Part shown: positions 36,739 to 54,961 of the stretch, in pieces
How the letters are laid out: each line of letters begins with the position of its first letter
Position numbering within the stretch: position 1 is the stretch's first letter
From: Escherichia coli
GTDB taxonomy: Bacteria; Pseudomonadota; Gammaproteobacteria; Enterobacterales; Enterobacteriaceae
Assembly (NCBI RefSeq): GCF_003790525.1
Contig: NZ_CP033634.1
Direction: 5' to 3' (one strand)
Length of the DNA: 64,000 nucleotides
Made by a program: the position numbers and the translations under genes
The notes under the pieces: model-generated
The model's input: the letters and a program-made list of their open reading frames with translations, nothing else
Told to the model about the DNA's origin: nothing
Databases searched by the model: none

Positions 36739-36761
36739 GTTCTCATCTCCCTTTTCTTTTG

Positions 36762-36777
36762 CTGTATGTATATACAG
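36762..36777 (-). promoter_or_regulatory. LexA (SOS) box CTGTATGTATATACAG upstream of impC
   Basis: Perfect CTGT-N8-ACAG palindrome 24 bp upstream of the impC start. Confidence 0.7.
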
Positions 36778-39091: not shown

Positions 39092-39775
39092 ATGTCCCGT
39101 TTTATCCTGGGTGACTGCGTGCGAGTTATGGCCACGTTTCCGGACAATGCTGTCGATTTCATCCTCACCGACCCGCCGTATCTCGTCGGTTTCCGTGACC
39201 GTTCCGGGCGCACCATTGCCGGTGACGTTAACGATGACTGGTTGCAACCTGCCAGCAATGAGATGTACCGCGTACTCAAAAAAGACGCTCTGTTGGTCAG
39301 CTTCTACGGCTGGAACCGTATTGACCGCTTTATGGCGGCCTGGAAACGCGCCGGATTCAGCGTGGCAGGGCACCTCGTGTTCACCAAAAACTACACATCC
39401 AAATCTGCGTATGTCGCGTACCGCCACGAATGCGCCTACATCCTGGCAAAAGGCCGTCCACGTCTGCCACAAAACCCGCTGCCGGACGTGCTGGGCTGGA
39501 AATATTCGGGCAATCGTCATCACCCGACGGAAAAGCCTGTTACCAGCCTGCAACCGCTGATTGAGAGCTTCACACACCCGAACGCAATTGTGCTGGACCC
39601 GTTTGCAGGCAGCGGCTCAACCTGCGTTGCCGCCCTCCAGTCCGGACGCCGGTATATCGGTATCGAGCTGCTTGAGCAGTATCACCGTGCCGGACAGCAA
39701 CGACTGGCTGCCGTTCAACGGGCCATGCAGCAGGGGGCCGCGAATGATGACTGGTTTATGCCGGAGGCTGCGTAA
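39092..39775 (+). CDS. Orphan DNA methyltransferase (N6-adenine/N4-cytosine class, DPPY motif)
   Basis: FILTDPPYLVGF motif IV and C-terminal FAGSGST AdoMet-binding motif; AGGAGG before the ATG; no adjacent endonuclease gene. Confidence 0.8.
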   Translation: MSRFILGDCVRVMATFPDNAVDFILTDPPYLVGFRDRSGRTIAGDVNDDWLQPASNEMYRVLKKDALLVSFYGWNRIDRFMAAWKRAGFSVAGHLVFTKNYTSKSAYVAYRHECAYILAKGRPRLPQNPLPDVLGWKYSGNRHHPTEKPVTSLQPLIESFTHPNAIVLDPFAGSGSTCVAALQSGRRYIGIELLEQYHRAGQQRLAAVQRAMQQGAANDDWFMPEAA

Positions 39776-39997
39776 ATGAACTATGCCGGACACGAAAAAC
39801 TTCGCGCCGAAGTGGCGGAGGTGGCCAACACCATGTGTGACCTTCGGGCCAGGCTGAACGATATGGAGCATCGCTGTCGTTTTGATTCCGATGTGCTTGT
39901 TGAACGCCTGACACGCCAGACGCTGTATCGCGCCAATCGCCTGTTTATGGAGGCGTATACCGAAATTCTTGAACTGGATGCGTGCTTCAAAGATTAA
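39776..39997 (+). CDS. Hypothetical leading-region protein
   Basis: 73-aa ORF starting 1 nt after the methyltransferase stop. Confidence 0.5.
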   Translation: MNYAGHEKLRAEVAEVANTMCDLRARLNDMEHRCRFDSDVLVERLTRQTLYRANRLFMEAYTEILELDACFKD

Positions 39998-40009
39998 GGG
40001 GGAGACGAA

Positions 40010-40444
40010 ATGTACGGAACATGCGAAACACTCTGCCGGGAGCTGGCAGCGCAGTATCCGGGAGACACGCCGCTGATGCTGGTTGTCTGGTCCCCGGAAG
40101 AGATTCAGGCACTGGCTGACGGTATGGAAATTTCTCTGACCGATCATGAAATCAGGACCGTCCTGTCGCGCCTGGAGGACATCCCGGAAGACCAGCGGAG
40201 TGAATCCGGTATTTCTTCTGCCGCTGCGATGGAGATTATCAGCAACGTGAGCGAAAACCGCCAGGTGACCGTCCCTGCTGAACTGCTGGCGTCCCTGATT
40301 CAGACCGCCGAACAGGCACTGTGGAAACGTGAATGGGCCGCCCGTGATAACGGCCTTGCCGTCCCGGAATGTGTTACCCGCCGTCAGGCAGTGATTAATC
40401 AGGCCCGCACCCTGCTGAAAAACAACACACACGAAAACAACTGA
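40010..40444 (+). CDS. Hypothetical leading-region protein (paralogue of the ORF at 41921-42343)
   Basis: 144 aa; shares the ...R.VTVPA..L...... block with the 41921 ORF. Confidence 0.55.
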   Translation: MYGTCETLCRELAAQYPGDTPLMLVVWSPEEIQALADGMEISLTDHEIRTVLSRLEDIPEDQRSESGISSAAAMEIISNVSENRQVTVPAELLASLIQTAEQALWKREWAARDNGLAVPECVTRRQAVINQARTLLKNNTHENN

Positions 40445-40558
40445 TGTTATCGCCGCCTGCCCTCTGCCATTCAGAGACTGACCGGAACCGGGGCGGAACT
40501 GGTACTGTCCGGCAGTCAGTGGCAGTCGCTGCCGGTACTTCCGGCAGACGGAACGCAG

Positions 40559-41032
40559 GTGTCTTTCCCGTATGCCGGAGAATGGCTGACCGAAGACGAA
40601 ATCAGGGCTGTTCTTGATGCGGTGCACGATGCGGTACGAAGCATCTGTTACCAGGTGGCAGAAGATACGCGGCGTATCCGGGCGGCGCTGACCACCACCG
40701 GTCAGACGTTGCTGACCCGCCAGACGCGCCGCTTTCGCCTGGTCGTGAAGGAAAGCGATCATCCCTGCTGGCTCGATGAAGATGACGAAAACCTGCCCGT
40801 AGTGCTCGATGTCATCGTGAACCGGGGCGCACGTTTTTCGGCAGTGGAAATGTACCTGGTCAGCGATTGTATTGAGCATATCCTGTCCAGTGGGCTGGCC
40901 TGCGATGTGCTGCGTATACCGGATGAACCGCCCCGCCGCTGGTTTGACCGTGGTGTTCTGCGGGAGGTGGTCCGGGAAGCCCGGACCGAAATCCGCAGCA
41001 TGGCGGATGCCCTGGCAAAAATCCGTAAATGA
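40559..41032 (+). CDS. Hypothetical leading-region protein (GTG start)
   Basis: 157-aa ORF in the same orientation as its neighbours. Confidence 0.5.
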
Positions 41033-41448
41033 TGACACTGGCGGGGTAAATCCCCGCCTTTTTCCTGCCGGTCCCCGGACAGAGCACAAAGGAAGTCGCC
41101 GCCGGCTCCGCTTTACCCGGCCATGCGGGGCATGGCCTTGTGGATTTTCAGTTATGTGGCCTCAGCGTCGTGTGCGGGCTGTGCCGTGCCTCCATCGTAG
41201 CCGGGCTTCTGCGGGCGGGTTGCAAGGTAAGGTGAACCGCTGCGGTCACCCGGTCCCTCCTTCCCGTCTGCCGTGATTTTCCGGTCGTTCACCCGCTCAG
41301 ATTTCGCGGTCTCACCCTCCAACTCCCGCCAGCCGTGTGCGTCAGGCTGCGGCTTCCCTTGCGCCCTTGCAACCCTGCAGGCCCGGCAAAGATGGAGGCA
41401 CGGCACCGCCCGGTGTCGCGGAATATGTGAACAACGGAGGAAAACATC

Positions 41449-41874
41449 ATGCAATATGCGAAACCTGTCACTCTGAATGTTGAAGAGTGCGACCGTCTGT
41501 TTTTTCTGCCTTACCTGTTTGGCCAGGATTTTCTGTATGCCGAGGCATCTGTGTACGCGCTGGCGAAAAAAATGATGCCGGAATATGACGGCGGATTCTG
41601 GCACTTCATCCGCCTGCCGGACGGTGGCGGTTACATGATGCCGGATGGCGACCGTTTTCATCTGGTCAACGGTGAAAACTGGTTTGACCGTACGGTCAGC
41701 GCCGATGCCGCAGGCATCATTGTGACTTCCCTTGTGATTAACCGTCAGTTGTGGCTGTACCACGACAGCGGTGATGCAGGACTGACTCACCTGTACAGGA
41801 TGCGCGATGCGCAGTTGTGGAGCCACATCGAATTTCACCCCGAATGCAATGCGATTTACGCGGCACTGGACTGA
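41449..41874 (+). CDS. klcA: KlcA/ArdB-family antirestriction protein
   Basis: 141-aa product; size, leading-region position and recalled KlcA/ArdB family resemblance. Confidence 0.7.
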
Positions 41875-41920
41875 TTAACGGACGGGGCGGCAATGCCGCC
41901 CCTGTAAAGGAGACGAGAAC

Positions 41921-42343
41921 ATGTACTGTACTGTTAAAGAAATTATCCGCGAAGTGCTGGATACAGACGTGCCGGACAGTGAATGCGTTTTTGCCGTGGT
42001 GCTGACCCGTGGGGATGTGCGCCACATAGCTCAGGACTGGAGTCTGGCAGACGATGAGCTGGAAACCGTCATGCAGCGGCTGGACGATGCCTTTGAGCAT
42101 GGTGCGGATGTCAGCGTTGTTCACGACGTTGTTCGTGAACTGATGGAAGAAAAGCGCGCCAGCCGTCATGTGACAGTCCCGGCGATGATGCTGGAAAAAG
42201 TGATGGCGCTGGCAGGCAGTGAAATGAAGCGCCTGTATGCCGTCGGAAGTGAGAACGGGGGCGACGGTGACGCATTCGTCAGGGAGGAACGCGAAGCAAT
42301 GGACGTTGTGTTACAGGCGCTGGACGGGGAGACGATGTCATGA
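41921..42343 (+). CDS. Hypothetical leading-region protein
   Basis: 140-aa ORF with an AGGAGA-type ribosome-binding site. Confidence 0.55.
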   Translation: MYCTVKEIIREVLDTDVPDSECVFAVVLTRGDVRHIAQDWSLADDELETVMQRLDDAFEHGADVSVVHDVVRELMEEKRASRHVTVPAMMLEKVMALAGSEMKRLYAVGSENGGDGDAFVREEREAMDVVLQALDGETMS

Positions 42344-42531
42344 ATATCAGCACAGAAACCCGCGAAATTCTGCGTAATTACAGGGCCGTGATTAATGCGC
42401 GGCGTCGTGAAATGGGGCAGAAACCGCTCACCACCGCGCAGATTGTTGATGAAATCTGCGATTTTGTGGCGAATCAGCAGGCGGTTTTCCTAGGCGGTCA
42501 CTACATCTTACAGGGCAGCAGAAACAGGTGA
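42340..42531 (+). CDS. Hypothetical small protein
   Basis: 63-aa ORF overlapping the upstream stop. Confidence 0.4.
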   Translation: MNISTETREILRNYRAVINARRREMGQKPLTTAQIVDEICDFVANQQAVFLGGHYILQGSRNR

Positions 42532-42720
42532 TACAGGGGCAGGCGGTGGAGGCCGCCTGTCAGCCCGCGCGAAAACCCCTGGCAGGCTGACGCCTGCCGG
42601 AAGGGAAGCGGGCCACGCTGGCGCGTCGCCCGTTACCCTTCCCGTCTGTGATGTGTCTGACTCAGGAGTGTTTCTTTCTTATGTTATGGAACTGTTCCTG
42701 ATGTTGTTGTTCCTTTATCT

Positions 42721-43335
42721 GCTGCTCTGATTCTGACTACTGCAGTGTTGTTCTGTCTGCCGGGCGCACCTTCGGCTCCCGGCTGCCTGGCGGCATCCGG
42801 TCGTCAGGCCCGACTCCGACAGGCAGCTGCTGGCGCACCCGCCAGTCTCCGCCGAACCCGCTGGCGCGGTTTCGGGCTGTCGCTACGGTCCGATGCGTGA
42901 AAACCCCGGGCTTGCAGCGACCGTTCCGGTCGCGCCGCCTCTGTCGCGCCGTGGCCTGCGCTCCAGGCATCCCGGCAAAAAGACGCCGGGATGTAAGGCG
43001 CAACGCCGTTTCGCAAACCGCGCTTCACGTCGTTGCTGCGGGTCCCTGCTCATTGCCTGCCGGGTGCCACACACCCGTATGAGTCCCTGTCGCCGGGGGC
43101 ATAGACAGCCACAACCTGCCGCACTGACTGTCCAGGGTAAATGAACAGCCCACAAAATTTTTTACCCAGAACCCGGTAAAAAATTTTGCGTTCTGCCCAG
43201 GACAGGTGCGTCAGGCCGTGGCAGTGATGCCCCTTGCGGCGAAGGTTCTCAAACGGGTGAAGTTCATACCACAGGGAATACAGCAGCAGGTTCCCGCGAA
43301 ACGTCAAAACCGCGGCTCCCGAAACTCAACGGGTG
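42721..43335 (+). repeat. Frpo/ssi-like leading-region repeat, copy 1 (putative single-stranded-DNA promoter element)
   Basis: About 600 bp of GC-rich non-coding sequence recurring near-identically at 46052-46675 and, with an internal deletion, at 51454-52010; each copy precedes a plus-strand gene cluster. Confidence 0.6.
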
Positions 43336-43570
43336 ATGTTCTTTAAAAATCAGGATTTATTTCAGGCTCCGGCAATACGCATTTATGTGTTCTGTCAGTC
43401 ATCCGGCTGGCAGGTAATGAGAACGCAGGAACAGAAGGAGGAAAACACCGGAGAACGTCAGACGCAGATATGAAAAAAGCAGGTCAGGGACCTGCTTAAT
43501 CCACGCCGTAAGAATTGCGCAACCAATTTTGACGGCATTGTTAACCAATTTGTCATAAGGAGTTTCATTT

Positions 43571-43801
43571 ATGACGGTAAGTATTGTTTCACCTTCCGCA
43601 GCGGCTGTAAAGCCCCGCCGTCATCCCCGTTTCAGACGCGAAGACATCCCCGCGCCGGAAATTGACCCCGTGCTGAAAGCCTTCGGGCGACACATAGCCC
43701 GGAGTTTTCACCGGGGGCGTGGTGTACACATCCCCGCCATGAAAAACACGGCCTTCGGGCAGGTGCTCCGCACACTCGAACTGAAACGCGCTTTTAACTG
43801 A
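43571..43801 (+). CDS. Hypothetical small basic protein
   Basis: 76-aa ORF downstream of Frpo copy 1. Confidence 0.4.
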   Translation: MTVSIVSPSAAAVKPRRHPRFRREDIPAPEIDPVLKAFGRHIARSFHRGRGVHIPAMKNTAFGQVLRTLELKRAFN

Positions 43802-43852
43802 TGAGGTGAGCCGCCCCGCGAGGGGCGGCAACAGATGGAAGGAGAACATTTT

Positions 43853-45214
43853 ATGACATTAGCAGCAATCACCATGACCGCCCCGGAAGCCGCCAACCCT
43901 GTGCAGATGTACCGCGCGACCTACTCACCGGATGACAACAAACTGCGCCTGTATGCCGCGTCACGTCTTGACCCGGAGACGTATAAAAAAGTGCATGATG
44001 CCGGTTTTCGCTGGGCACCCAAACAGGCGCTGTTTGTCGCGCCAGCCTGGACACCGGGCCGGGAAGACGTGCTCCTCTCACTTGCCGGAGAGATTGAGGA
44101 TGAAGACAGCACGCTCGCTGAACGTCAGGAAGCACGGGCGGAGCGGTTTACCGGATACAGCGGAAAGCGGGCCAGTGAATCCGCACAGGCACTTGATGAA
44201 GTGGAAAGACTGGCCGCGATGATCCCGCCCGGTCAGCCCATTCTTGTGGGGCATCACAGCGAACGCCGCGCCCGTCGTGATGCGCAGCGTATTGAAAACG
44301 GCATGAAACGTGCCGTGATGCTCTTTGAGCGTGCGGAATACTGGGAGGAGCGGGCGCGGTCGGCACTGCTTCACGCGAAGTATAAAGAACGCCCGGACGT
44401 TCGCTGGCGTCGTATCAAAAAAATCGAAGCGGATTTGCGCAAGGCTGAAAAGACCATCGCGCAGTCGCAGAAATATCTGACGATGTGGCGGGCTGAATCG
44501 CTGGATCTGAATATGGCAAAACTCATCAGCAGTCATGACCATATCAGCGCCTGTTTCCCGCTGGACAGGTATCCGCGCCCGGCAGAAAAAAGCCAGTATG
44601 AAGGAAGTCGATCGTTATGGTCGGCCCTGGATGATGACATCATCACCACGGAGCAGGCCCGCGAAATTGCGATCCGCTGTCATGAACGGCAGATTCAGCA
44701 TCAACAACGCTGGGTTAACCACTATCATAACCGCCTGATCTATGAGCGTGCCATGCTGGACGAAAGCGGCGGCGTGGTTACCCGGACACAGGATTTTGAG
44801 CCGGGCGGACAGGTTTTCAGCCGGGGCGAGTGGCTGACCATCATCCGCGTGAACAAAAGCAACGGGGCGGTGAGTTCAGTCACAACGCCGAATTACAGTT
44901 TTCTCGGGTACAGCGGCACGATGAAAGTGACACCCGATCGCATCACGGACTACAAAGCACCATCGGCAGAAGAGGCTGCCGTCGCCAGTCAGGCCGCGAA
45001 GCGTCCGCCGGTAGTCAACTATCCGGGGGAAGGTTTCCGGGAAATGACAAAGGCGCAGTGGGCCGCCCTGCCCCGGGACTGTAAGGCCGTGCGCAGTGTG
45101 GCAGAGACAGAAGACCACGGGGCATACCGCTACCGCCGCACAATGGACAATAATTTCCGCCTGGTGAATGTGTATATCACTGACATGAAAATCACGGAAA
45201 TCCCACAGAAATAA
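43853..45214 (+). CDS. Large leading-region protein (recalled as DUF3560-like)
   Basis: 453 aa from the ATG at 43853 (GGAAGGAGA 7 nt upstream); the listed ORF starts 6 codons earlier. Confidence 0.65.
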   Translation: MTLAAITMTAPEAANPVQMYRATYSPDDNKLRLYAASRLDPETYKKVHDAGFRWAPKQALFVAPAWTPGREDVLLSLAGEIEDEDSTLAERQEARAERFTGYSGKRASESAQALDEVERLAAMIPPGQPILVGHHSERRARRDAQRIENGMKRAVMLFERAEYWEERARSALLHAKYKERPDVRWRRIKKIEADLRKAEKTIAQSQKYLTMWRAESLDLNMAKLISSHDHISACFPLDRYPRPAEKSQYEGSRSLWSALDDDIITTEQAREIAIRCHERQIQHQQRWVNHYHNRLIYERAMLDESGGVVTRTQDFEPGGQVFSRGEWLTIIRVNKSNGAVSSVTTPNYSFLGYSGTMKVTPDRITDYKAPSAEEAAVASQAAKRPPVVNYPGEGFREMTKAQWAALPRDCKAVRSVAETEDHGAYRYRRTMDNNFRLVNVYITDMKITEIPQK

Positions 45215-45260
45215 GGTATATCCCCCCGGGAAATCCCCGGGGGATGACGGAGATAATGAC

Positions 45261-45824
45261 ATGCACAGTCAGTTAAGAGAACGTATCCGGCTGATGCGCG
45301 CAAGGCTGGATAACGCCGCGCCGGTTGCTGAAATCCGGGCTGAATCTCAGCTTTTTGTGACTCCTGCCCCGGTCTGTGATCGCCTGGTGACGCTGGCGGA
45401 AATCAGCAACCGTGATCACATTCTGGAACCCTCTGCCGGCACCGGGGCCATACTGCTGGCGATTCGGGATACCGCGCCGGAGGCCATGTGTGATGCGGTG
45501 GAGATTAACAGCGGGCTGGTCCGGTATCTGCGGGAAAATTTTAACGGTGTCAGGGTACAGTGTGGCGACTTCATGGAATGGCAGCCGGTGCAGTATTACA
45601 GCCGGATCATTATGAATCCGCCGTTCAGTCACGGGCAGGATATCCGGCATATCCTGCGGGCTTTTTCCCTGTTGCGTCCGGGGGGCGTTCTGGTTGCCGT
45701 CTGTCTCAACGGGCCGCGCCAGCAGGAGAAGCTGTTACCGTTTTCTGACGTCCGCGAGGAGCTGCCGCGCGGCACGTTTGCTTATACCGATGTCCCGACG
45801 ATGATTATTCGTTTGCGTGCCTGA
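45261..45824 (+). CDS. Second orphan SAM-dependent methyltransferase (NPPF motif)
   Basis: ILEPSAGTGAIL (AdoMet-binding motif I) and IIMNPPFSHG (motif IV); 187 aa; no endonuclease partner. Confidence 0.7.
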   Translation: MHSQLRERIRLMRARLDNAAPVAEIRAESQLFVTPAPVCDRLVTLAEISNRDHILEPSAGTGAILLAIRDTAPEAMCDAVEINSGLVRYLRENFNGVRVQCGDFMEWQPVQYYSRIIMNPPFSHGQDIRHILRAFSLLRPGGVLVAVCLNGPRQQEKLLPFSDVREELPRGTFAYTDVPTMIIRLRA

Positions 45825-46006
45825 TGACACAGGGCTGGCGGGAGGATAAATGCCCGTCTGTCCGCGCCGGGAAAAGACCGCGCGCCGGTGGCGCTGAAAG
45901 GGGCCGCGCTCACGCGCCGCCCCTTTCATTACGCGGACGTTCTGATGGGGGCTTCTGTCTTTTCAGACCTGTCATTTGTCTGTTACTGATGATGTTGTTG
46001 TTCCTG

Positions 46007-46040
46007 CTACTGCTACTGCTACTGCTACTGCTACTGCTCT
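46007..46040 (+). repeat. Hexanucleotide tandem repeat (CTACTG)n immediately upstream of Frpo copy 2
   Basis: ctgctactgctactgctactgctactgctactgctc read directly; absent at the equivalent position of copies 1 and 3. Confidence 0.85.
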
Positions 46041-46051
46041 TCTTTTTCCTG

Positions 46052-46675
46052 CTGCTCTGATTCTGACTACTGCAGTGTTGTTCTGTCTGCCGGGCGCACC
46101 TTCGGCTCCCGGCTGCCTGGCGGCATCCGGTCGTCAGGCCCGACTCCGACAGGCAGCTGCTGGCGCACCTGCCAGTCTCCGCCGAACCCGCTGGCGCGGT
46201 TTCGGGCTGCCGCTACGGTCCGATGCGTGAAAACCCGGCTTGCAGCGACCGTTCCGGTCGCGCCGCCCCTGTCGCGCCGTGACCTGCGCTCCAGGCATCC
46301 CGGCAAAAAGACGCCGGGATGTAAGGCGCAACGCCGTTTCGCAAACCGCGCTTCACGTCGTTGCGGCGGGTCCCTGCCCGTTGTTGTGTCCGGTGCCATT
46401 CACCTGTTTAAGCCCCTGTCGCCGGGGGCTGATACAGCCACAACCTGCCGCACTGACTGTCCAGGGTAAATGAACAGCCCACAAAATTTTTTACCCAAAA
46501 CCCGGTAAAAAATTTTGCGTTCTGCCCAGGACAGGTGCGTCAGGCCGTGGCAGTGATGCCCCATGCGGCGAAGGTTCTCAAACAGGTGATGGTGAATACC
46601 GGAGGGAACAAAGAGCAGGTCCCCGCAAAACGTCAAAACCGCGGCTCCCGAAACTCAACAGATGATGGGGGCTGA
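46052..46675 (+). repeat. Frpo/ssi-like leading-region repeat, copy 2
   Basis: Near-identical to copy 1; lies directly upstream of ssb. Confidence 0.6.
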
Positions 46676-46700
46676 AAACATCAACAGAAGGAGACACATC

Positions 46701-47228
46701 ATGGCAGTTCGTGGCATTAACAAGGTCATTCTTGTCGGTCGTCTGGGAAAAGATCCGGAAGTCCGTTACATCCCAAACGGGGGCGCAGTGGCAAACCTGC
46801 AGGTGGCCACGTCAGAAAGCTGGCGCGACAAACAGACGGGGGAGATACGGGAGCAGACAGAATGGCATCGCGTGGTGCTGTTCGGCAAGCTCGCGGAAGT
46901 GGCTGGTGAGTATCTGCGCAAGGGCGCGCAGGTCTACATCGAAGGTCAGCTTCGCACCCGTAGCTGGGAGGATAACGGTATCACCCGTTACGTCACCGAA
47001 ATTCTTGTTAAGACCACGGGCACCATGCAGATGCTGGGACGTGCCGCAGGTACTCAGACTCAGCCGGAAGAGGCGCAACAGTTCAGCGGTCAGCCTCAGC
47101 CGGAATCACAGCCGGAACCGAAAAAAGGAGGCGCGAAAACGAAAGGCCGTGGACGTAAGGCCGCGCAGCCGGAGCCTCAGCAGCCGTCTGAACCCGCGTA
47201 TGACTTCGATGACGACATTCCGTTCTAA
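46701..47228 (+). CDS. ssb: Plasmid single-stranded DNA-binding protein
   Basis: [48 protein letters not shown]... OB-fold SSB with acidic DFDDDIPF tail; AAGGAG before the ATG. Confidence 0.92.
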
Positions 47229-47241
47229 CGAAAGACAGTGA

Positions 47242-47517
<276 letters not shown>

Positions 47518-47580
47518 GAGAGGTGCCGGACGGGAACGCGTCCGGCAGACATACAACCATCCCGGTCAAAGGAGAAATAT

Positions 47581-49539
47581 ATGTCAGTTACAGAGTCTAA
47601 GACAAAAACGGAGCGTAAATCCAGCCGTAAACCTGCAAAAACGCAGGAAACTGTCCTGTCTGCCCTGCTGGCGCAGACGGAGGAAGTGAGCGTGCCGCTG
47701 GCCTCGCTGATTAAATCACCGCTGAATGTGCGCACGGTGCCGTATTCTGCGGAGTCCGTCAGCGAACTGGCGGAGTCCATTAAGGGCGTCGGACTGCTGC
47801 AGAATCTGGTCGTGCATACCCTGCCAGGTGACCGTTACGGTGTCGCCGCAGGTGGTCGCCGACTGGCAGCACTCAACATGCTGGCAGAGCGTGGAATCAT
47901 TCCGGCTGACTGGCCTGTCCGCGTGAAAATTATTCCGCAGGAACTGGCGACGGCTGCATCGATGACCGAGAACGGTCATCGTCGGGATATGCACCCTGCC
48001 GAACAGATTGCCGGATTCCGCGCAATGGCGCAGGAAGGCAAAACACCTGCACAAATCGGTGATTTGCTGGGCTATTCACCCCGCCACGTTCAGCGAATGC
48101 TGAAACTGGCAGACCTTGCGCCTGTCATTCTCGATGCGCTGGCAGAGGACCGCATCACCACAGAGCACTGTCAGGCGCTGGCGCTGGAGAACGACACCGC
48201 GCGTCAGGTGCAGGTGTTTGAAGCCGCCTGTCAGTCAGGATGGGGCGGTAAACCGGAAGTGCAGACCATTCGTCGTCTGGTGACCGAAAGTGAAGTGGCG
48301 GTGGCGGGGAACAGTAAATTCCGCTTCGTGGGGGCTGATGCCTTCTCGCCAGATGAACTGCGCACCGATTTGTTCAGCGACGACGAGGGTGGCTATGTGG
48401 ACTGCGTGGCGCTCGATGCCGCCCTGCTGGAAAAACTCCAGGCTGTTGCTGAACACCTTCGGGAAGCCGAAGGCTGGGAATGGTGCGCCGGACGTATGGA
48501 GCCTGTCGGTTTCTGCCGTGAGGATGCCGGAACATACCGCAGTCTGCCGGAGCCGGAAGCGGTGCTGACGGAGGCGGAAGAAGAACGCCTGAACGAACTG
48601 ATGGCACGTTACGACGCGCTGGAAAATCAGTGTGAGGAATCCGACCTGCTGGAAGCAGAAATGAAGCTGATTGACTGCATGGCGAAGGTCAGGGCGTGGA
48701 CGCCGGAGATGCGTGCCGGAAGTGGCTTGGTGGTATCCTGGCGTTATGGAAACGTATGTGTCCAGCGTGGTGTGCAGTTGCGCAGTGAGGATGACGTGGC
48801 TGACGACGCTGGCCGCACGGAACAGGTGCAGGAGAAAGCCTCCGTGGAGGGAATCAGTCTGCCGCTGCTGACGAAAATGTCTTCCGAACGCACGCTGGCA
48901 GTCCAGGCGGCACTCATGCAGCAACCGGACAAATCCCTGGCACTGCTGGCATGGACGCTCTGCCTGAATGTGTTTGGCAGCGGAGCGTACAGTAAACCAG
49001 CACAAATCAGCCTGGAATGTGAACATTATTCGCTGACCAGCGATGCGCCATCGGGGAAGGAAGGTGCCGCATTCATGGCGCTGATGGCAGAAAAAGCCCG
49101 TCTTGCTGCCCTGTTGCCGGAGGGATGGGCACGGGACATGACGACGTTCCTGTCACTCAGTCAGGAGGTGCTGTTATCCCTGCTCAGTTTCTGCACCGCA
49201 TGCAGCCTTAACGGTGTCCAGACCCGTGAGTGTGGTCACACGTCACGCAGTCCGCTTGACTCGCTGGAAACCGCTATCGGATTCCACATGCGCGACTGGT
49301 GGCAGCCGACAAAAGCAAACTTCTTCGGACACCTGAAAAAGCCGCAGATTATCGCAGCCCTGAATGATGCCGGACTGTCCGGTGCCGCACGGGACGCGGA
49401 GAAGATGAAGAAAGGCGATGCGGCTGAACATGCAGAGTTCCACATGAAAGACAACCGCTGGGTGCCTGGCTGGATGTGTGCACCACGTCCACAGACGGAT
49501 GCCACTGAACGCACCGCTAACCTGGCTGATGCCGCCTGA
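47581..49539 (+). CDS. ParB-like nuclease-domain protein of the leading region
   Basis: 652 aa; N-terminal ParB/Srx-like motif (GLLQNLVVHTLPGDRYGVAAGGRRLAA). Confidence 0.8.
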   Translation: MSVTESKTKTERKSSRKPAKTQETVLSALLAQTEEVSVPLASLIKSPLNVRTVPYSAESVSELAESIKGVGLLQNLVVHTLPGDRYGVAAGGRRLAALNMLAERGIIPADWPVRVKIIPQELATAASMTENGHRRDMHPAEQIAGFRAMAQEGKTPAQIGDLLGYSPRHVQRMLKLADLAPVILDALAEDRITTEHCQALALENDTARQVQVFEAACQSGWGGKPEVQTIRRLVTESEVAVAGNSKFRFVGADAFSPDELRTDLFSDDEGGYVDCVALDAALLEKLQAVAEHLREAEGWEWCAGRMEPVGFCREDAGTYRSLPEPEAVLTEAEEERLNELMARYDALENQCEESDLLEAEMKLIDCMAKVRAWTPEMRAGSGLVVSWRYGNVCVQRGVQLRSEDDVADDAGRTEQVQEKASVEGISLPLLTKMSSERTLAVQAALMQQPDKSLALLAWTLCLNVFGSGAYSKPAQISLECEHYSLTSDAPSGKEGAAFMALMAEKARLAALLPEGWARDMTTFLSLSQEVLLSLLSFCTACSLNGVQTRECGHTSRSPLDSLETAIGFHMRDWWQPTKANFFGHLKKPQIIAALNDAGLSGAARDAEKMKKGDAAEHAEFHMKDNRWVPGWMCAPRPQTDATERTANLADAA

Positions 49540-49590
49540 TGAACAACCACACCGCCCCGCCGGAGACGGGGCGGCAGAGGGAGAAATACG

Positions 49591-50028
49591 ATGATGAATA
49601 CCGAACTGACACTGAATGCCCTGCAGTCCATGAATGCCCAGGAATATGAAGAAATCCGTGCTGCGGGAAGCGATATGCGCCGTAATCTCACTCACGAGGT
49701 GATGCGTGAAGTGGACGCACCGGCTAACTGGATGATGAATGGCGAGTATGGCAGCGAGTTCGGGGGCTTTTTCCCCGTCCAGGTTCGTTTCACGCCAGCC
49801 CACGAACGTTTCCACCTGGCATTATGTTCGCCGGGAGACGTCTCTCAGCTCTGGGTGCTGGTTCTGGTGAATGCCGGTGGTGAGCCGTTTGCGGTGGTTC
49901 AGGTGCAGCGGCGGTTTGCACCGGAAGCTGTCAGCCATTCACTGGCACTGGCGGCGTCACTGGATGCGCAGGGGTACAGCGTTAACGACATCATTCATAT
50001 CCTGATGGCGGAAGGAGGTCAGGCATGA
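49591..50028 (+). CDS. psiB: PsiB plasmid SOS-inhibition protein (alternative start 49594)
   Basis: ...[26 protein letters not shown]...[33 protein letters not shown]... near-identical to recalled F PsiB. Confidence 0.92.
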
Positions 50029-50744
50029 GCGCACGTTCACAGGCACTGGTTCCTCTCAGCACAGAGCAACAGGCCGCATGGCGGGCGGTGGCGGAGACCG
50101 AAAAACGCCGCCATCAGGGTAACACGCTGGCTGAATATCCGTATGCGGGGGCGTTTTTCCGCTGTCTGAACGGAAGCCGCAGGATTTCGCTGTCTGACCT
50201 GCGATTTTTCATGCCATCCCTGACCGCAGAAGAACTGCACGGCAGCCGTCTTCAGTGGCTGTATGCCATCGATGTGCTGATTGAAACACAGGGCGAGGTC
50301 TGCCTCCTTCCCCTTCCCGGTGATGCAGCAGAGCGCTTGTTCCCGTCGGTGCGGTTTCGTGTCAGGGAACGCAGTCGCCATAAATCCGCGCTGGTCATGC
50401 AGAAGTACAGCCGCCAGCAGGCGAGGGAGGCAGAGCAGAAAGCCCGTGCGTACCAGGCGCTGGTCGCTCAGGCTGAAATCGAACTGGCATTCCATTCGCC
50501 GGAAACAGTCGGAAGCTGGCATGCACGCTGGAGTGACCGGGTGGCAGAGCATGACCTGGAAACCCTGTTCTGGCAGTGGGGCGAGCGTTTTCCGTCACTG
50601 GCCGGAATGGAACGCTGGCAGTGGCAGGATATGCCGTTCTGGCAGGTTATTGCGGAAGCCAGTCTTGCAGCAAGAGAGGCCGGTCACGCTGTCCGTGAGA
50701 TGGAGCGGTGGATGGTGCCGAACAAACTCCGGGAGGCAGCGTGA
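50025..50744 (+). CDS. psiA: PsiA
   Basis: 239-aa product downstream of and overlapping psiB, as in F. Confidence 0.9.
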
Positions 50745-50924
50745 TGCGGCAACAATCACACGGATTTCCCGTGAACGGTCTGAATGAGCGGATTATTTTC
50801 AGGGAAAGTGAGTGTGGTCAGCGTGCAGGTATATGGGCTATGATGTGCCCGGCGCTTGAGGCTTTCTGCCTCATGACGTGAAGGTGGTTTGTTGCCGTGT
50901 TGTGTGGCAGAAAGAAGATAGCCC

Positions 50925-51000
50925 CGTAGTAAGTTAATTTTCATTAACCACCACGAGGCATCCCTATGTCTAGTCCACATCAGGATAGCCTCTTACCGCG
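50925..51000 (-). ncRNA. sok: Putative Sok antisense RNA (approximate)
   Basis: Position inferred from the hok/sok paradigm (antisense across the mok start region). Confidence 0.35.
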
Positions 51001-51178
51001 CTTTGCGCAAGGAGAAGAAGGCCATGAAACTACCACGAAGTTCCCTTGTCTGGTGTGTGTTGATCGTGTGTCTCACACTGTTGATATTCACTTATCTGAC
51101 ACGAAAATCGCTGTGCGAGATTCGTTACAGAGACGGACACAGGGAGGTGGCGGCTTTCATGGCTTACGAATCCGGTAA
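50966..51178 (+). CDS. mok: Mok-like overlapping reading frame of the hok/sok locus
   Basis: 70-codon frame overlapping hok in the +2 register, as described for R1 hok/sok. Confidence 0.55.
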
Positions 51179-51182
51179 GTAG
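51024..51182 (+). CDS. hok: Hok host-killing toxin (type I toxin-antitoxin; flmA-like)
   Basis: [52 protein letters not shown], 52 aa, matching recalled Hok. Confidence 0.9.
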
Positions 51183-51453
51183 CAACCTGGAGGCGGGCGC
51201 AGGCCCGCCTTTTCAGGACTGATGCTGGTCTGACTACTGAAGCGCCTTTATAAAGGGGCTGCTGGTTCGCCGGTAGCCCCTTTCTCCTTGCTGATGTTGT
51301 ACGGGCATGAACAACCTGACTTCAGGAAGGTCGTTTCCCTTCAGGAACGGGGATGAACGCGCGCCTGCGGCGCCCGTTCTTTTCCCCCGCCTTCTCTGGT
51401 TACGGCCTGTCAGAAATCACATCACCTTCCCTGTGATTATTCTCTTTTTCTTC

Positions 51454-52010
51454 CTGCTCTGATTCTGACTACTGCAGTGTTGTCCTGTCTGCTGGCGCAC
51501 CTGCCAGTCTCCGCCGAACCCGCTGGCGCGGTTTCGGGCTGTCGCTACGGTCCGATGCGTGAAAACCCCGGGCTTGCAGCGACCGTTCCGGTCGCGCCGC
51601 CTCTGTCGCGCCGTGGCCTGCGCTCCTGGCATCCCGGCAAAAAGACGCCGGGATGTAAGGCGCAACGCCGTTTCGCAAACCGCGCTTCACGTCGTTGCTG
51701 CGGGTCCCTGCCCGTTGTTGTGTCCGGTGCCATTCACCTGTTTAAGCCCCTGTCGCCGGGGGCTGATACAGCCACAACCTGCCGCACTGACTGTCCAGGG
51801 TAAATGAACAGCCCACAAAATTTTTTACCCAAAACCCGGTAAAAAATTTTGCGTTCTGCCCAGGACAGGTGCGTCAGGCCGTGGCAGTGATGCCCCTTGC
51901 GGCGAAGGTTCTCAAACAGGTGATGGTGAATACCGGAGGGAACAAAGAGCAGGTCCCCGCAAAACGTCAAAACCGCGGCTCCCGAAACTCAACAGATGAT
52001 GGGGGCTGAA
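51454..52010 (+). repeat. Frpo/ssi-like leading-region repeat, copy 3 (about 70-bp internal deletion relative to copies 1 and 2)
   Basis: Same start (ctgctctgattctgactactgcagtgttg) and end (cgtcaaaaccgcggctcccgaaactcaac) as the other copies. Confidence 0.6.
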
Positions 52011-52438
52011 AACCAGAGAGAGGAGAAAGCTGGATGAGTACCCGAAATATCCACGTTAACACCGCGTCGTACACGATTCTTGTTGCCGGGAGGGAAAAAA
52101 CACCGGGGAAGAGTGGGACGTCCTGGAATTCAGCAGCCTGACTGAGCTGAAAAAATATCGCAAAAGCCACCCGGAAAAGATGGCCTTCAGCTATAGCTAC
52201 GCGCTCAGCCGGGGTGTGGATACGCAGTTCCGCCATATCAACATTGCGGAAGCCGATCACTTCAAACAGTTCCTGCGTCAGATTAAGCGTGCCGGCCTCG
52301 ATATCCGGGCGATCTGCTGACCGGATGTGATGAATATCCCTCCTGATTGTTGCAATCTTGTTAATGGAGATCGGGAGAGATGATATTAAGCGGAAAAATT
52401 TTTTATTAAATTTATTCTTTCATAAAGGAGTAGCTGTT

Positions 52439-53260
52439 ATGCGATTAGCTTCCCGTTTTGGTCGGTATAATTCCATCCGTCGTGAACGTCCTTTAACGGA
52501 TGATGAATTAATGCAGTTCGTGCCTTCGGTATTTTCCGGTGATAAACATGAGTCCCGGAGTGAACGTTATACGTATATTCCAACAATCAATATCATCAAT
52601 AAGTTACGTGATGAAGGTTTCCAGCCATTCTTTGCCTGTCAGAGTCGGGTTCGTGATTTGGGACGCCGCGAATACAGTAAACATATGTTACGTCTTCGCA
52701 GGGAAGGGCATATTAACGGGCAGGAAGTTCCTGAAATTATCCTGCTTAATTCACATGATGGTTCATCCAGTTATCAGATGATCCCCGGAATTTTTCGTTT
52801 TGTCTGCACAAATGGCCTGGTGTGCGGAAATAATTTTGGCGAAATCCGTGTTCCACATAAAGGTGATATTGTCGGGCAGGTTATCGAGGGAGCGTATGAA
52901 GTGCTCGGTGTCTTTGATAAGGTCACTGATAATATGGAGGCGATGAAAGAAATTCATCTTAACAGTGACGAGCAACATTTATTTGGCAGAGCTGCACTGA
53001 TGGTCAGGTATGAAGATGAAAATAAAACGCCAGTGACACCTGAACAGATAATTACTCCCCGTCGTCGGGAAGATAAACAGAACGATCTCTGGACAACCTG
53101 GCAGCGGGTTCAGGAGAATATGATAAAAGGTGGATTATCGGGGCGAAGTGCCTCCGGGAAAAATACCAGGACAAGAGCCATTACAGGTATTGATGGTGAT
53201 ATAAGAATCAACAAGGCGTTATGGGTGATTGCCGAACAGTTCAGAAAGTGGAAGTCATGA
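52439..53260 (+). CDS. DUF932-like leading-region protein
   Basis: 273 aa from the ATG at 52439 (AAGGAG upstream), MRLASRFGRYNSIRRERPLTDDELMQF...; the gene nearest oriT on the leading side. Confidence 0.7.
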   Translation: MRLASRFGRYNSIRRERPLTDDELMQFVPSVFSGDKHESRSERYTYIPTINIINKLRDEGFQPFFACQSRVRDLGRREYSKHMLRLRREGHINGQEVPEIILLNSHDGSSSYQMIPGIFRFVCTNGLVCGNNFGEIRVPHKGDIVGQVIEGAYEVLGVFDKVTDNMEAMKEIHLNSDEQHLFGRAALMVRYEDENKTPVTPEQIITPRRREDKQNDLWTTWQRVQENMIKGGLSGRSASGKNTRTRAITGIDGDIRINKALWVIAEQFRKWKS

Positions 53261-53556
53261 TAATATAAGTAAAGCCCCGAAAAAATTTTCGGGGCTTTAC
53301 TTATATTATCATTTTTCGGCATTGCTGTGTCGTCTGATATACCTCAATTTCATCGACCGGCTTTCCGGTTGTCTGTAAATATTGTGCCCGCGAAAAATGG
53401 TCTGGCAGGAGGCTGCGCAGTTACCGGGTATATATAAGATGGGTTCCCGCTTCGCGGGGCTTCGGCCAGTCAGTATTGTCACTCATATGATATTTTTGTG
53501 TGTGGCCTTCCATGCCGCTTTTGCGGCATAACCGGTATCTGACAATGTCTGTAAGA

Positions 53557-54066
53557 TTAATTGTTCTGCACGCTGTTAATTTCCGGAAGTGATTTCTTCG
53601 TGGCCGGAAGCCGGATACCTTTACTGCTTTTTATCCCGGTATAAATCCGGTAAACCTCTGATGCGTAGGCAAGACGTCTCTGGTTCTGGCGTTCGGATTT
53701 CCTGAATCCTGCATTGTATGCACCAACGGCCTCCCAGGTGACGCCCCATTTTTTAAATGCTATTGCCAGATAATAAGCACCGGTATAAATGTTCATGCAG
53801 GGATCTGTTGTCAGATGTTCTGGCTTAATTCCGTAGCGGGCCAGTTCGTTAAAATGCTGGGAATCTACCTGCATCAGTCCGCTGCCATATCCCGTTACCG
53901 GATTAATACCGATGGCATTAACCCGGTAACGGGATTCTTTCCATGATATTGCTCTCAGTAAATCAGGATCTATTTTGTAATCCCGGCCTGCAAGATCAAA
54001 GCAATCAGTGGCATGGCAGATCTCATTTATAAACATCAGGCAGATGGCTAACATCCATTTTTTCAT
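53557..54066 (-). CDS. Lytic transglycosylase (gene X / orf169-like)
   Basis: 169 aa from [10 protein letters not shown]...; signal peptide then lysozyme-like transglycosylase motifs ([24 protein letters not shown]). Confidence 0.85.
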
Positions 54067-54099
54067 TTTTCCACCTCTGGTGACTTTATCCGTAAATAA

Positions 54100-54470
54100 T
54101 TTAACCCACTCCACAAAAAGGCTCAACAGGTTGGTGGTTCTCACCACCAAAAGCACCACACACTACGCAAAAACAAGTTTTTGCTGATTTGCCACTTGAA
54201 TCATTAACTTATGTTTTAAATAATGTATTTTAATTTATTTTACATTATAAAAAGGATTCATTGGTGAATCGCATATGATTCACCAATGAATTTAACACAA
54301 CTCATAGATGAATCAGTAATAATAAAACAACGAGTTAAAGCGAATTGACTCTAGATTCAATTCGTGATGTGATTTGCTGCATGAATCGTAATTTTCGTAA
54401 CTTGCGTCACGATTCGATTCATCGATGAATTGTCATTTTTTTATATGTGAAATAAATTTGATGCGATAAG
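54100..54470. other. oriT region; nic predicted on the minus strand near 54157/54158
   Basis: Inverted repeat TTGGTGGTTCTCACCACCAA (54131-54150) followed by AAGCACCACACACTACGCAAAAAC, resembling the recalled F/R100 nic region; AT-rich tract with repeated motifs before traM. Confidence 0.7.
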
Positions 54471-54489
54471 AAAATAAAGAGGTATACAT

Positions 54490-54873
54490 ATGGCGAAAGT
54501 GCAGGCTTATGTCAGTGACGAAATTGTCTATAAAATAAATAAAATTGTGGAAAGAAGACGTGCAGAAGGAGCTAAAAGTACAGATGTAAGTTTCTCAAGC
54601 ATATCCACTATGCTTCTCGAATTAGGGCTTCGTGTATATGAGGCTCAGATGGAGCGTAAAGAGTCAGCGTTCAATCAGGCTGAGTTTAATAAGGTGCTTC
54701 TTGAATGTGCGGTAAAAACACAGTCAACAGTTGCTAAGATTTTAGGTATTGAGTCACTAAGCCCTCATGTTTCCGGGAATCCAAAGTTTGAATATGCGAA
54801 TATGGTCGAAGATATCAGGGAGAAGGTGTCATCTGAGATGGAGAGGTTCTTTCCAGAAAATGATGAGGATTAA
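54490..54873 (+). CDS. traM: TraM
   Basis: MAKVQAYVSDEIVYKINKIVERRRAEGAKSTDVSFSSISTMLLELGLRVYEAQ..., 127 aa. Confidence 0.9.
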   Translation: MAKVQAYVSDEIVYKINKIVERRRAEGAKSTDVSFSSISTMLLELGLRVYEAQMERKESAFNQAEFNKVLLECAVKTQSTVAKILGIESLSPHVSGNPKFEYANMVEDIREKVSSEMERFFPENDED

Positions 54874-54961
54874 AAAAGAATTAAAAGTTGATTTGCTTCA
54901 AATAACAGGATTTTGATCTGGTTCAATTTGATGACAATTAACCGCATAAAGGTTATATTAA

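Follow-up and report, generated by a model that had tools for sequence, protein, structure and literature searches.

The closest described counterparts of the repeats reported here are the Frpo elements of plasmid F. Frpo1, which is the same element as ssiD (Masai & Arai, 1997), lies 5' of ygeA/ygeB, and Frpo2 (Couturier et al., 2023), which served as a portable single-stranded DNA (ssDNA) promoter in Samuel et al. (2024), lies directly 5' of ssb, yfjA (DUF905), yfjB (ParB-like), psiB and psiA. For these F sequences, which are nearly identical to the repeats described below, the literature reports dependence on RNA polymerase, activity on ssDNA only, early expression in the recipient, and priming. 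Homologs of Frpo are widespread, with 13,089 found in 6,006 conjugative elements (PMC11541004). The class 1 elements ssi1–ssi3 of the IncI1 plasmids ColIb-P9, R64 and pESBL are likewise three direct repeats dispersed in the leading region, with one ahead of each gene block; the start sites of the pESBL class 1 promoters have been mapped by 5' RACE (PMC12672017). The class 2 (ssp2, “Frpo3”) and class 3 ssDNA promoters of F and pESBL follow the same principle, that of a hairpin promoter in the leading region on the transferred strand (T-strand).

Three direct repeats in an IncF leading region

The window (the whole 64-kb stretch of DNA that was analyzed) represents an IncF leading region with the gene order of plasmid F. 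By repeat finding, MAFFT alignment and BLAST we identified three direct repeats in it (copies 1, 2 and 3) that are 92–98.5% identical. Chance was ruled out as the source of these matches, as every BLAST E-value was 0.0, and BLAST found no fourth copy in the window. The repeats and their surroundings comprise the following features:

42691-43338, no strand assigned: copy 1, whole unit, made up of the Frpo hairpin and the accessory module upstream of it; 92.5% identity with copy 2 across 650 bp
42691-43007, minus strand: accessory module of copy 1
43008-43327, minus strand: Frpo-type hairpin of copy 1, 320 nt; −101.3 kcal/mol, z −11.3; nine G·T pairs, no A·C mismatches; identity 80% with F ssiD and 90.7% with the F Frpo2 construct
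43571-46060, plus strand: gene block after copy 1, not in F; 76-aa ORF, DUF3560 protein (43835-45214), class I SAM methyltransferase (45261-45824), 78-aa ORF
46021-46682 (to 46667 when aligned to copy 1), no strand assigned: copy 2, whole unit, directly 5' of ssb (repeat finding, MAFFT, BLAST)
46021-46335, minus strand: accessory multi-hairpin module of copy 2, repeated together with the promoter; −86.2 kcal/mol, z −5.0
46336-46656, minus strand: Frpo-type hairpin of copy 2, 321 nt, positional equivalent of F Frpo2; −101.9 kcal/mol versus −92.1 for the plus strand; 97.6% identical to the Frpo2 segment of Samuel et al. (2024) and 94.4% to F Frpo2
46456-46492, minus strand: candidate elements of a promoter, located in the 3' arm of the hairpin of copy 2; UP-like A/T tract with TTGTGG (46479-46492), 8-nt bulge TTCATTTA (46467-46474) and TGGACAGT (46456-46463)
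46701-51178, plus strand: gene block after copy 2; ssb (46701-47228), DUF905 gene, ParB-like gene (47581-49539), psiB (49591-50028), psiA (50025-50744), hok/sok
51443-52016, no strand assigned: copy 3, whole unit, without 70 bp of the distal accessory module, 5' of the ygeA homolog and the DUF932 gene; 98.5% identical to copy 2 over 525 bp
51443-51669, minus strand: accessory module of copy 3, with the 70-bp deletion
51670-51990, minus strand: Frpo-type hairpin of copy 3, 321 nt, positional equivalent of F Frpo1/ssiD; −102.6 kcal/mol, z −11.5; 87% identical to F ssiD
52034-53260, plus strand: gene block after copy 3; ygeA homolog (frameshifted relative to F), DUF932 gene (52358-53260)
54152-54164, minus strand: nic site of oriT, of the R100 type (AGTGTGT^GGTGCT), with the nick falling between 54158 and 54157

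The preliminary description had placed the repeats at 42721-43335, 46052-46675 and 51454-52010, which agrees with our coordinates to within about 30 bp, and had called them GC-rich, as they are (0.57–0.68 versus roughly 0.55–0.60 in the flanking region). The internal deletion of about 70 bp that it noted in copy 3 proved to be exactly 70 alignment columns, equivalent to positions 46087-46156 of copy 2 and 42757-42826 of copy 1, with the junction at about 51488/51489 and a CTGC microhomology flanking the deleted segment. Its view of each repeat as a ~600-bp Frpo/ssi-like element had to be narrowed: the three copies are real, but the Frpo hairpin takes up only the downstream ~320 nt of each ~600–650-bp unit, and the upstream ~300 bp form an accessory multi-hairpin extension. 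Since the segment missing from copy 3 lies beyond the promoter hairpin, there is no ground to expect that this copy is impaired.

The genes 3' of each repeat are those listed previously (DUF3560-like and methyltransferase genes; ssb, ParB-like, psiB, psiA and hok; DUF932). A ribosome-binding site is situated 30–45 nt past the hairpin for copies 2 and 3, and for copy 1 the first ORF is 244 nt away, with an antisense RNA gene in the gap. The nic site, which is of the R100 type, has the minus-strand orientation near 54157 proposed earlier, and this fits transcription of the plus-strand genes from the transferred strand. As the nick is on the minus strand, this strand is the T-strand and the template for all plus-strand leading genes, and each of the three repeats is in the leading region next to oriT, with the transferred strand as the template of its downstream genes.

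On the minus strand, F ssiD (D90178) matches 46671-46322 and 52005-51656 (87%) and 43327-42994 (80%). Identity to the functional segment of F Frpo2 is 97.6% for copy 2, 97.7% for copy 3 and 90.7% for copy 1, and the F core identities are 94.4% and 88.6%. BLAST matched the repeats only to each other and to Frpo; no homology to class 2 or class 3 promoters was found. Homology, position, strand and fold together support the interpretation, made in the preliminary description, of Frpo/ssi ssDNA promoters, and the three repeats are very probably class 1 ssDNA promoters (Frpo/ssi/ssp1) of the IncF leading region. They are an ordinary, already known and well-studied feature of F-like plasmids. The element is present in more than 5000 PLSDB plasmids with ~2.9 copies each, so three copies are normal; F has two.

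Long imperfect palindromes in several dispersed copies are also what would be expected from three insertions of a small non-autonomous mobile element (a MITE-like palindrome), and Venturini et al. raised the possibility that the leading region bounded by Frpo is mobile (PMC3817090). However, the inverted repeat is internal and asymmetric, the repeated sequence continuing for another ~315 bp on just one side. The two ends of the unit do not form an inverted repeat, and no target-site duplications flank the copies in the alignments. Since all copies also have the same orientation relative to oriT and the genes, at positions syntenic with F, we consider an origin by insertion extremely improbable.

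Folding of the transferred strand

Folding of the minus strand, a check proposed earlier, produced an imperfect hairpin of ~320 nt in each copy that is more stable than that of the plus strand by ~10 kcal/mol and has 8–9 G·T pairs and no A·C mismatches. These long stem-loops (~300 nt) on the transferred strand have folding energies of −101 to −107 kcal/mol and are far more stable than shuffled sequence (z values of −10.8 to −11.5), and the minus strand of the whole copy 2 unit reaches −190.8 kcal/mol (z −10.8). When a 300-nt sliding fold was run over positions 36000-55000, the three repeat hairpins were the top three sites (−95 to −98 versus a mean of −48.6, sd 14.2).

Covariation among eight homologs argues for the same structure, with 94.6% of cells paired versus 38–49% when the partners were slid. 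Double changes occurred at 11 hairpin pairs, and the observed covariation score was reached in none of 500 shuffles. The hairpins of copies 1 and 2 differ at 31 positions and have near-equal stabilities (−101.3 vs. −101.9 kcal/mol). Conservation along the hairpin is highest in the lower stem, in which the sequence of the 5' arm is almost invariant. It is lowest in the upper stem and apex, the part expected to carry the promoter, and this counts against the promoter reading.

The hairpins might instead act as RNA, as structured 5' UTRs, processing sites or operon-separating terminators. Read-through from upstream could yield a plus-sense RNA that forms a similar hairpin, and the almost invariant 5' arm would then fall in the leader of the first gene, but all of the G·T wobbles of the minus strand would become A·C mismatches in this RNA, in keeping with the lower stability of the plus strand. 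In addition, a T-run 3' of the stem is absent for all copies and there is no match to an Rfam family. Published work in which the near-identical F element was deleted, transplanted or changed in orientation shows that it depends on the DNA strand. We think action as RNA highly improbable, and return to the hairpins as ssDNA promoters.

Candidate promoter elements and priming

The candidate elements listed for copy 2 are present, identical in sequence, in copy 1 (43127-43163) and copy 3 (51790-51826). On the 3' arm, TGGACAGT is surrounded by the 8-nt bulge, a T·T mismatch and a 3-nt bulge, with the UP-like A/T tip and TTGTGG on the same arm. The construct of Samuel et al. (2024), in which acrIIA4 was driven from ssDNA, begins at the equivalent of copy 2 position 46412, and this places the promoter in the upper stem. 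The earlier expectation of a hairpin with promoter-like −35 and −10 boxes was borne out with regard to the stable hairpin, but canonical boxes are not obvious: the top candidate on the 3' arm, TTGTGG-17-GACAGT, has 3/6 consensus matches in each hexamer and a weak score of 5.0. No site was consistently the best-scoring across the F, ColIb-P9, Serratia and insect homologs. A linear consensus scan found no sigma-70 match of at least 9/12 inside any of the three repeats, so that, judged from sequence, a conventional duplex promoter appears to be absent. We regard exact positions of the −35 and −10 elements and of the start site as putative.

Based on the F elements, we propose that in conjugation the minus strand would be nicked at 54158/54157 and enter the recipient 5' end first, with each gene block arriving just before its own repeat. 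As long as the DNA remains single-stranded, the ~320 nt that make up the downstream end of each repeat would fold into the long imperfect hairpin. Its upper stem may imitate a duplex promoter, with an UP-like tip rich in A/T, a −35 of the TTG type and, on the 3' arm, a −10 region that is bulged and mispaired. Host sigma-70 RNA polymerase would bind this hairpin and transcribe along the 5' arm into the downstream plus-strand genes, using the T-strand as template. The same transcripts could prime complementary-strand synthesis, and conversion to duplex would destroy the hairpin and turn the promoters off. In this way, the first genes to enter a new host would be switched on at once. Homology, strand, position, fold, strand asymmetry, covariation and the lack of a canonical duplex promoter were computed for this plasmid; transcription or priming that depends on RNA polymerase and transfer would be expected here by analogy with the near-identical F elements.

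The elements could also be mainly ssi signals, priming complementary-strand synthesis on the incoming T-strand with gene expression secondary. Their homolog F ssiD was originally isolated for its priming activity and is catalogued as an ssi, and Masai and Arai found that the RNA synthesized at Frpo primes DNA synthesis (summarized in PMC7690428). Transcripts of ssp1/Frpo prime conversion to duplex in vivo, and early conversion events 3' of ssp1/Frpo are sensitive to rifampicin (bioRxiv 10.64898/2026.01.09.698686). Priming is, however, compatible with a promoter role, and published deletions of F Frpo1 or Frpo2 abolished downstream gene expression. Each copy here is directly 5' of a co-oriented block, with the ribosome-binding sites of copies 2 and 3 close behind the hairpin, and priming at copy 3 would copy only ~2 kb before the 5' end of the strand is reached. 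A mainly priming role is therefore possible but doubtful.

Comparison with related plasmids and the accessory module

Copy 3 is in the same place as F Frpo1, between hok/sok and ygeA/DUF932, and has the same strand and the same ~320-nt T-strand hairpin (87–88.6% identical), but its upper stem and apex are of the Frpo2 type. The Frpo1-type apex is absent from the window, although it is present in 2,839 PLSDB plasmids. Over equivalent ~370-nt segments, predicted stability is greater for the hairpin in the window than for F Frpo1 (−107 vs. −93 kcal/mol). Copy 2 shares its gene neighborhood with F Frpo2 (identity 94.4% in the core, 97.6% in the functional segment). F Frpo2 itself appears to be a recombinant that joins a left flank and 3' arm of the copy 1 type to a 5' arm of the copy 2 type, being copy 1-like left of position 46413 and copy 2-like from 46430 on. 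F is also without the 76-aa/DUF3560/methyltransferase block that divides copies 1 and 2 in the window. Recombination between Frpo repeats (R1–R3 of pO26-CRL125, and the chimeric repeat of pO111-CRL115; Venturini 2013; PMC3817090) deletes the leading-region genes between them and leaves a chimera, and we infer the same kind of gene loss for F relative to this plasmid. Those plasmids differ in that they have an IncI backbone and the whole 9.7-kb R1–R3 block was lost, whereas here only the copy 1–copy 2 block (~3.3 kb) differs from F.

Such exchange raises the alternative that copy 1, and the repeat architecture generally, is a passive product of duplication or recombination, with only the copies known from F being functional. 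The structure of F Frpo2 indicates that copies recombine, a similar chimeric repeat is documented in IncI plasmids (PMC3817090), and paralogs (98.5%) are more alike than positional orthologs (88.6%). Nevertheless, the copy 1 hairpin is as stable as that of copy 2 (z −11.3) despite its sequence differences and has kept its upper stem identical, and the genes that follow it form a co-oriented block of the leading-region type. As ~2.9 copies per plasmid are also maintained across the PLSDB plasmids, a passive origin is improbable, and copy 1 is predicted to be an active promoter.

The ssi1–ssi3 elements of ColIb-P9, R64 and pESBL share with the window long T-strand hairpins, the A/T-rich tip, the TTGTGG motif, the bulge and CCCTGGAC. 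Their similarity is limited in that BLAST aligns only ~80 nt at the apex (79–80%) and the lower stems are unrelated in sequence.

The accessory module, the ~300 nt that follow the T-strand hairpin on its 3' side, is a string of short GC-rich hairpins (z −5). Its proximal ~100 nt are conserved in F, insect-metagenome and Salmonella Frpo-like sequences, and its distal part is plasmid-specific. The module as a whole is homogenized within a plasmid, being of the window type in all three copies here and of the F type in both F copies. It is copied with every promoter, which gives the repeated unit roughly double the length of the promoter hairpin. The lower stem of the main hairpin is nearly invariant, yet was dispensable in the Frpo2 reporter construct (Samuel et al., 2024). 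These two features hint at a possible separate module. Module and lower stem together might act at the ssDNA level as a barrier to complementary-strand synthesis or SSB/RecA loading, or as a site where primer RNA is handed over to DNA polymerase, but we consider this unlikely. If true, the barrier would prolong the single-stranded state of the promoter, as reported for ssp2, an unrelated promoter of class 2; class 2 is reported to act also as a conversion roadblock (bioRxiv 10.64898/2026.01.09.698686). The class 2 promoter hairpins, found 5' of klcA/ardB, and those of class 3, found 5' of the M.EcoGIX-type methylase, have no sequence similarity to the three repeats. A class 2 homolog that is 90% identical to that of F is present elsewhere in the window, at ~41090-41450, 5' of a klcA/ardB-like gene.

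Three direct repeats and the direction of transfer

The window covers the leading region of an IncF plasmid, with oriT and the tra operon after it. The preliminary description had proposed three repeats here, each preceding a gene block, and repeat finding, MAFFT alignment and BLAST searches of the window with each copy recovered all three in the same places, with no fourth copy found in the window by BLAST. Identity is 92.5% over 650 bp between copies 1 and 2 and 98.5% over 525 bp between copies 2 and 3 (BLAST, all E-values 0.0), and local GC maxima coincide with the three repeats. Copy 2 is 100% identical to p1522kTc1 (F29:A-:B-, NZ_MW800637.1), and we pieced the gene order together from the annotation of that plasmid, the annotation of plasmid F (NC_002483) and NCBIfam matches.

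Gene order, repeats (by repeat finding, MAFFT and BLAST) and hairpins of the transferred strand (T-strand)
Before copy 1: DNA methylase, DUF1380 protein, hypothetical, antirestriction (klcA/ardB-like), DUF1380 protein, hypothetical
42691-43338: copy 1
43008-43327, minus strand: copy 1 hairpin, -101.3 kcal/mol, z -11.3
Between copies 1 and 2: 76-aa ORF, DUF3560 protein, class I SAM methyltransferase, 78-aa ORF
46021-46682: copy 2
46336-46656, minus strand: copy 2 hairpin, -101.9 kcal/mol
Between copies 2 and 3: ssb, DUF905 gene, ParB-like gene, psiB, psiA, hok/sok
51443-52016: copy 3
51670-51990, minus strand: copy 3 hairpin, -102.6 kcal/mol, z -11.5
After copy 3: ygeA homologue, DUF932 gene, SLT transglycosylase (minus strand), oriT, traM, traJ onward

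An R100-type nic sequence, AGTGTGT^GGTGCT, was found at 54164-54152 on the minus strand, placing the nick between 54158 and 54157. Since the nick is on the minus strand, this is the T-strand, which enters the recipient with its 5' end leading and continues toward lower coordinates. Every plus-strand leading gene also has this strand as its template, so the nic motif and the gene strands agree with the earlier placement of nic on the minus strand near 54157 and of the genes on the transferred template. Based on this direction of entry, each gene block enters the recipient just ahead of its own repeat.

Two features close to the repeats concern individual genes. Compared with F ygeA, the homologue after copy 3 (52034-52330) is frameshifted by -1 within a poly-A tract at ~52090-52100 (GGGAGGGAAAAAACACC in the window, GGGAAGAAAAAAAACACC in F), leading to a stop after 35 codons, and from the sequence this could be either a true pseudogene or an error in sequencing the homopolymer; deletion of ygeA in F strongly reduces transfer (PMC9849209). 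The copy 1 hairpin is separated by 244 nt from the first following ORF (43571-43801), and in this gap there is an Rfam match to AS-pc01, "antisense to pHK01_035" (43474-43576, minus strand, 86.7 bits; gathering score 79), with a terminator-like hairpin (43497-43477) and a promoter-like site (43611-43583) on the same strand, so that the copy 1 block may have its first gene under antisense control.

T-strand hairpins and their identity as class 1 ssDNA promoters

When modelled as single-stranded DNA, the minus strands of the copies each fold into a single long imperfect hairpin of ~320 nt, with minimum free energies of -101.3 to -102.6 kcal/mol compared with a mean of -55 kcal/mol for dinucleotide shuffles; the fold of the whole copy 2 unit has a z of -10.8. 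The three repeats are the strongest T-strand sites at 36000-55000 in a 300-nt sliding fold (-95 to -98 kcal/mol, against a background mean of -48.6, sd 14.2). A further predicted T-strand peak, at 47700-48299 within the ParB-like gene (-80.2 kcal/mol per 300 nt), may reflect GC content only.

The plus strand of the hairpin segments is ~10 kcal/mol weaker than the T-strand, and the T-strand hairpins have 8-9 G·T pairs and 0 A·C single mismatches, as expected if the minus strand has been selected to fold. Action of the repeats at the RNA level is disfavoured by this same asymmetry, which favours minus-strand DNA over plus-sense RNA, and by the lack of terminator features at the repeats. At a permissive threshold no Rfam family covers them, which is expected for a DNA-level element.

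Pairing was also supported by an alignment of eight T-strand homologues (copies 1-3, both F copies, and one Serratia and two insect-metagenome sequences listed by Samuel et al.). RNAalifold predicted 88 pairs, with standard pairs in 94.6% of cells versus 38-49% when partners were slid by 1-3 columns; 11 pairs had changed on both sides, and none of 500 column shuffles reached the observed covariation score. Copy 1 is unlikely to be a passive duplicate, as 31 positions of its hairpin are not those of copy 2, yet it folds equally well and has an upper stem identical to those of the other copies.

For direct comparison with known Frpo/ssi sequences we used Supplementary file 4 of Samuel et al., 2024 (PMC11541004). 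By BLAST, F ssiD (D90178) aligns on the minus strand with copies 2 and 3 at 87% identity (46671-46322 and 52005-51656) and with copy 1 at 80% (43327-42994). An F Frpo2 segment served in the same study as the driver of acrIIA4 expression from ssDNA; it is 97.6% identical to copy 2, 97.7% to copy 3 and 90.7% to copy 1. The core of copy 2 shares 94.4% identity with Frpo2 of plasmid F and 88.6% with its Frpo1. Copy 2 is the positional equivalent of F Frpo2, and copy 3 that of F Frpo1. The Frpo family has been named class 1 ssDNA promoters, with pESBL start sites mapped by 5' RACE (Wen et al., 2025; PMC12672017), and a 2026 preprint, in which they are called ssp1a and ssp1b, reports in vivo priming of conversion by their transcripts. 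The earlier reading of the repeats as ssDNA promoters is thus supported by homology to the F elements and by the T-strand hairpins: the repeats are a rediscovery of known class 1 ssDNA promoters (Frpo/ssi) in an ordinary IncF instance. A function mainly in priming would be compatible with a promoter role of the hairpins and already belongs to the published model.

Promoters of this type explain how anti-SOS, anti-restriction and other establishment genes are expressed within minutes of entry, before double-stranding, and they are a current focus in work on the spread of resistance plasmids. The window adds no new principle to this picture and serves as a clean three-copy example, in which the DUF3560/SAM-methyltransferase block, having its own copy, is a candidate early-expressed establishment or anti-defence module.

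Candidate promoter elements and the accessory module

The hairpin apex is a perfect A/T-rich stem (AAAATTTTTTACC / GGTAAAAAATTTT). From loop to base, the T-strand 3' arm then has TTGTGG, an 8-nt bulge, CCC, a T·T mismatch, GGACAG and a 3-nt TCA bulge, and these upper-stem motifs are identical in the three copies.

Candidate elements of the 3' arm
TTGTGG
8-nt bulge, TTCATTTA
TGGACAGT, with the TCA bulge

For a plus-sense RNA, the 3' arm would be the non-template strand, the 5' arm would be the template and polymerase would run from loop to base. This geometry agrees with the class 2 hairpin of the same region, whose 3' arm bears a far clearer TTGCAA ... TACGAT. The working Frpo2 construct starts at the equivalent of copy 2 46412 and holds the upper stem only, which points to the upper stem as the probable site of the promoter.

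The preliminary description had looked to a minus-strand hairpin with -35 and -10 elements; the stable hairpin is present in all copies, but the boxes resemble the consensus only weakly (TTGTGG-17-GACAGT, 3/6 + 3/6). A sigma-70 consensus scan of the repeats found no site inside them, and a weighted-matrix scan across 10 T-strand homologues gave neither a strong site nor a consistently placed one. Because the match is weak and the published positions appear in figures only, the -35/-10 assignment is one that we infer. The absence of a good duplex promoter from the repeats fits an ssDNA-only model.

Two other placements were rejected. A lower-stem promoter using the invariant 5'-arm TTGACG has no -10-like hexamer 16-19 nt on in any homologue, and the working Frpo2 construct (Samuel et al., 2024) does not include the partner arm of the lower stem. 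For a -10 inside the 8-nt bulge or its variants, the matching -35 would land in the loop.

The part of the hairpin thought to bear the promoter is the least conserved, and the most conserved part is missing from the working Frpo2 construct. In the eight-member alignment 78% of columns are invariant in the lower-stem 5' arm (91% identity to the Serratia and insect outgroups) versus 9% in the apex (31% identity).

The Frpo hairpin makes up only the downstream half of each repeat unit. The upstream ~300 nt (copy 2 46021-46335), which we term the accessory module, forms a row of short GC-rich hairpins on the T-strand (-86.2 kcal/mol, z -5.0). Its proximal ~100 nt are common to both F copies and to insect and Salmonella Frpo-like sequences, and include one hairpin with compensatory changes as judged by eye (ATCCCGGC...GCCGGGAT versus ATGCCGGC...GCCGGCAT). 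The ~70-bp deletion noted previously in copy 3 is real, amounting to 70 columns of the MAFFT alignment (copy 2 46087-46156) with CTGC microhomology at both edges, but it lies in the distal accessory module, where it takes out one hairpin (CTGCCTG...CAGGCAG), and leaves the promoter hairpin untouched. The promoter hairpins of copies 2 and 3 share 98.5% identity, and nothing in the sequence predicts a weaker copy 3. At the left edge of copy 2, within the 3' end of the 78-aa ORF (45824-46060), is a perfect (CTGCTA)x5.8 microsatellite (46004-46038); in NZ_MW800637.1, near-identical in other respects, the gene coordinates shift by 12 bp over this stretch, suggesting a variable repeat number.

Exchange among copies, prevalence and neighboring elements

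Plasmid F differs from the window in having two copies and in lacking the block between copies 1 and 2 (76-aa ORF/DUF3560/methyltransferase). F Frpo2 (plasmid F 6171-6693) is copy 1-like in its left flank and at 12 of 12 informative positions at 46378-46413 (copy 2 coordinates), and copy 2-like at all informative positions from 46430 onward, save one SNP private to copy 2. Based on this site-by-site switch, F Frpo2 looks like the product of a crossover between copies 1 and 2 that removed the DUF3560/methyltransferase block. The same event has been described in IncI plasmids (Venturini et al., 2013; PMC3817090), and the possibility of a crossover in F was already raised by Couturier et al. F Frpo2 is also the least stable of the F and window copies (-87.4 kcal/mol, with F Frpo1 at -92.8 and the window copies at -105 to -107); chimerism alone does not account for the difference, since the non-chimeric F Frpo1 is also weaker than the window copies.

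Copy 3 is 98.5% identical to its paralog copy 2 versus ~88.6% to its positional ortholog F Frpo1. The distal accessory module follows the plasmid and not the position, with the window type in copies 1-3 and the F type in both F copies. By these comparisons the copies show concerted evolution, homogenizing within the plasmid, and they appear both to swap sequence among themselves and to mediate gene-block loss. An origin of the repeats as a mobile element fails, based on the asymmetry of the repeat unit and the absence of terminal repeats and target-site duplications. The Frpo1-type apex, absent from the window, occurs in 2,839 PLSDB plasmids, in some adjoining ssb.

A PLSDB megablast with copy 2 gave at least 14,620 places in at least 5000 records, or ~2.9 per record among the matches listed, which are mainly to conjugative Escherichia, Klebsiella, Salmonella and Shigella plasmids. 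This ratio points to three class 1 copies as the ordinary IncF state, versus two in the laboratory F plasmid; ColIb-P9 and pESBL have three each, like the window. The count given by Samuel et al. is 13,089 Frpo homologues in 6,006 conjugative elements.

Upstream of the first methylase (38800-39095), where a class 3 promoter would lie, there is no outstanding hairpin (-47 kcal/mol); an IS110 element is located just upstream of that region. A fourth strong T-strand hairpin (41090-41450, minus strand; -91.4 kcal/mol, sliding-fold peak -84.2) lies directly upstream of the klcA/ardB-like antirestriction gene (41449-41874) and is 90% identical to an F region now described as a class 2 ssDNA promoter (ssp2, "Frpo3"). 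Lastly, 53374-53562 on the minus strand matches F ssiE (D90180) at 97.9%, ssiE being another single-strand initiation signal known from the literature; from its place after the DUF932 gene and before the SLT/gene X ORF, it enters the recipient ahead of all three Frpo copies.
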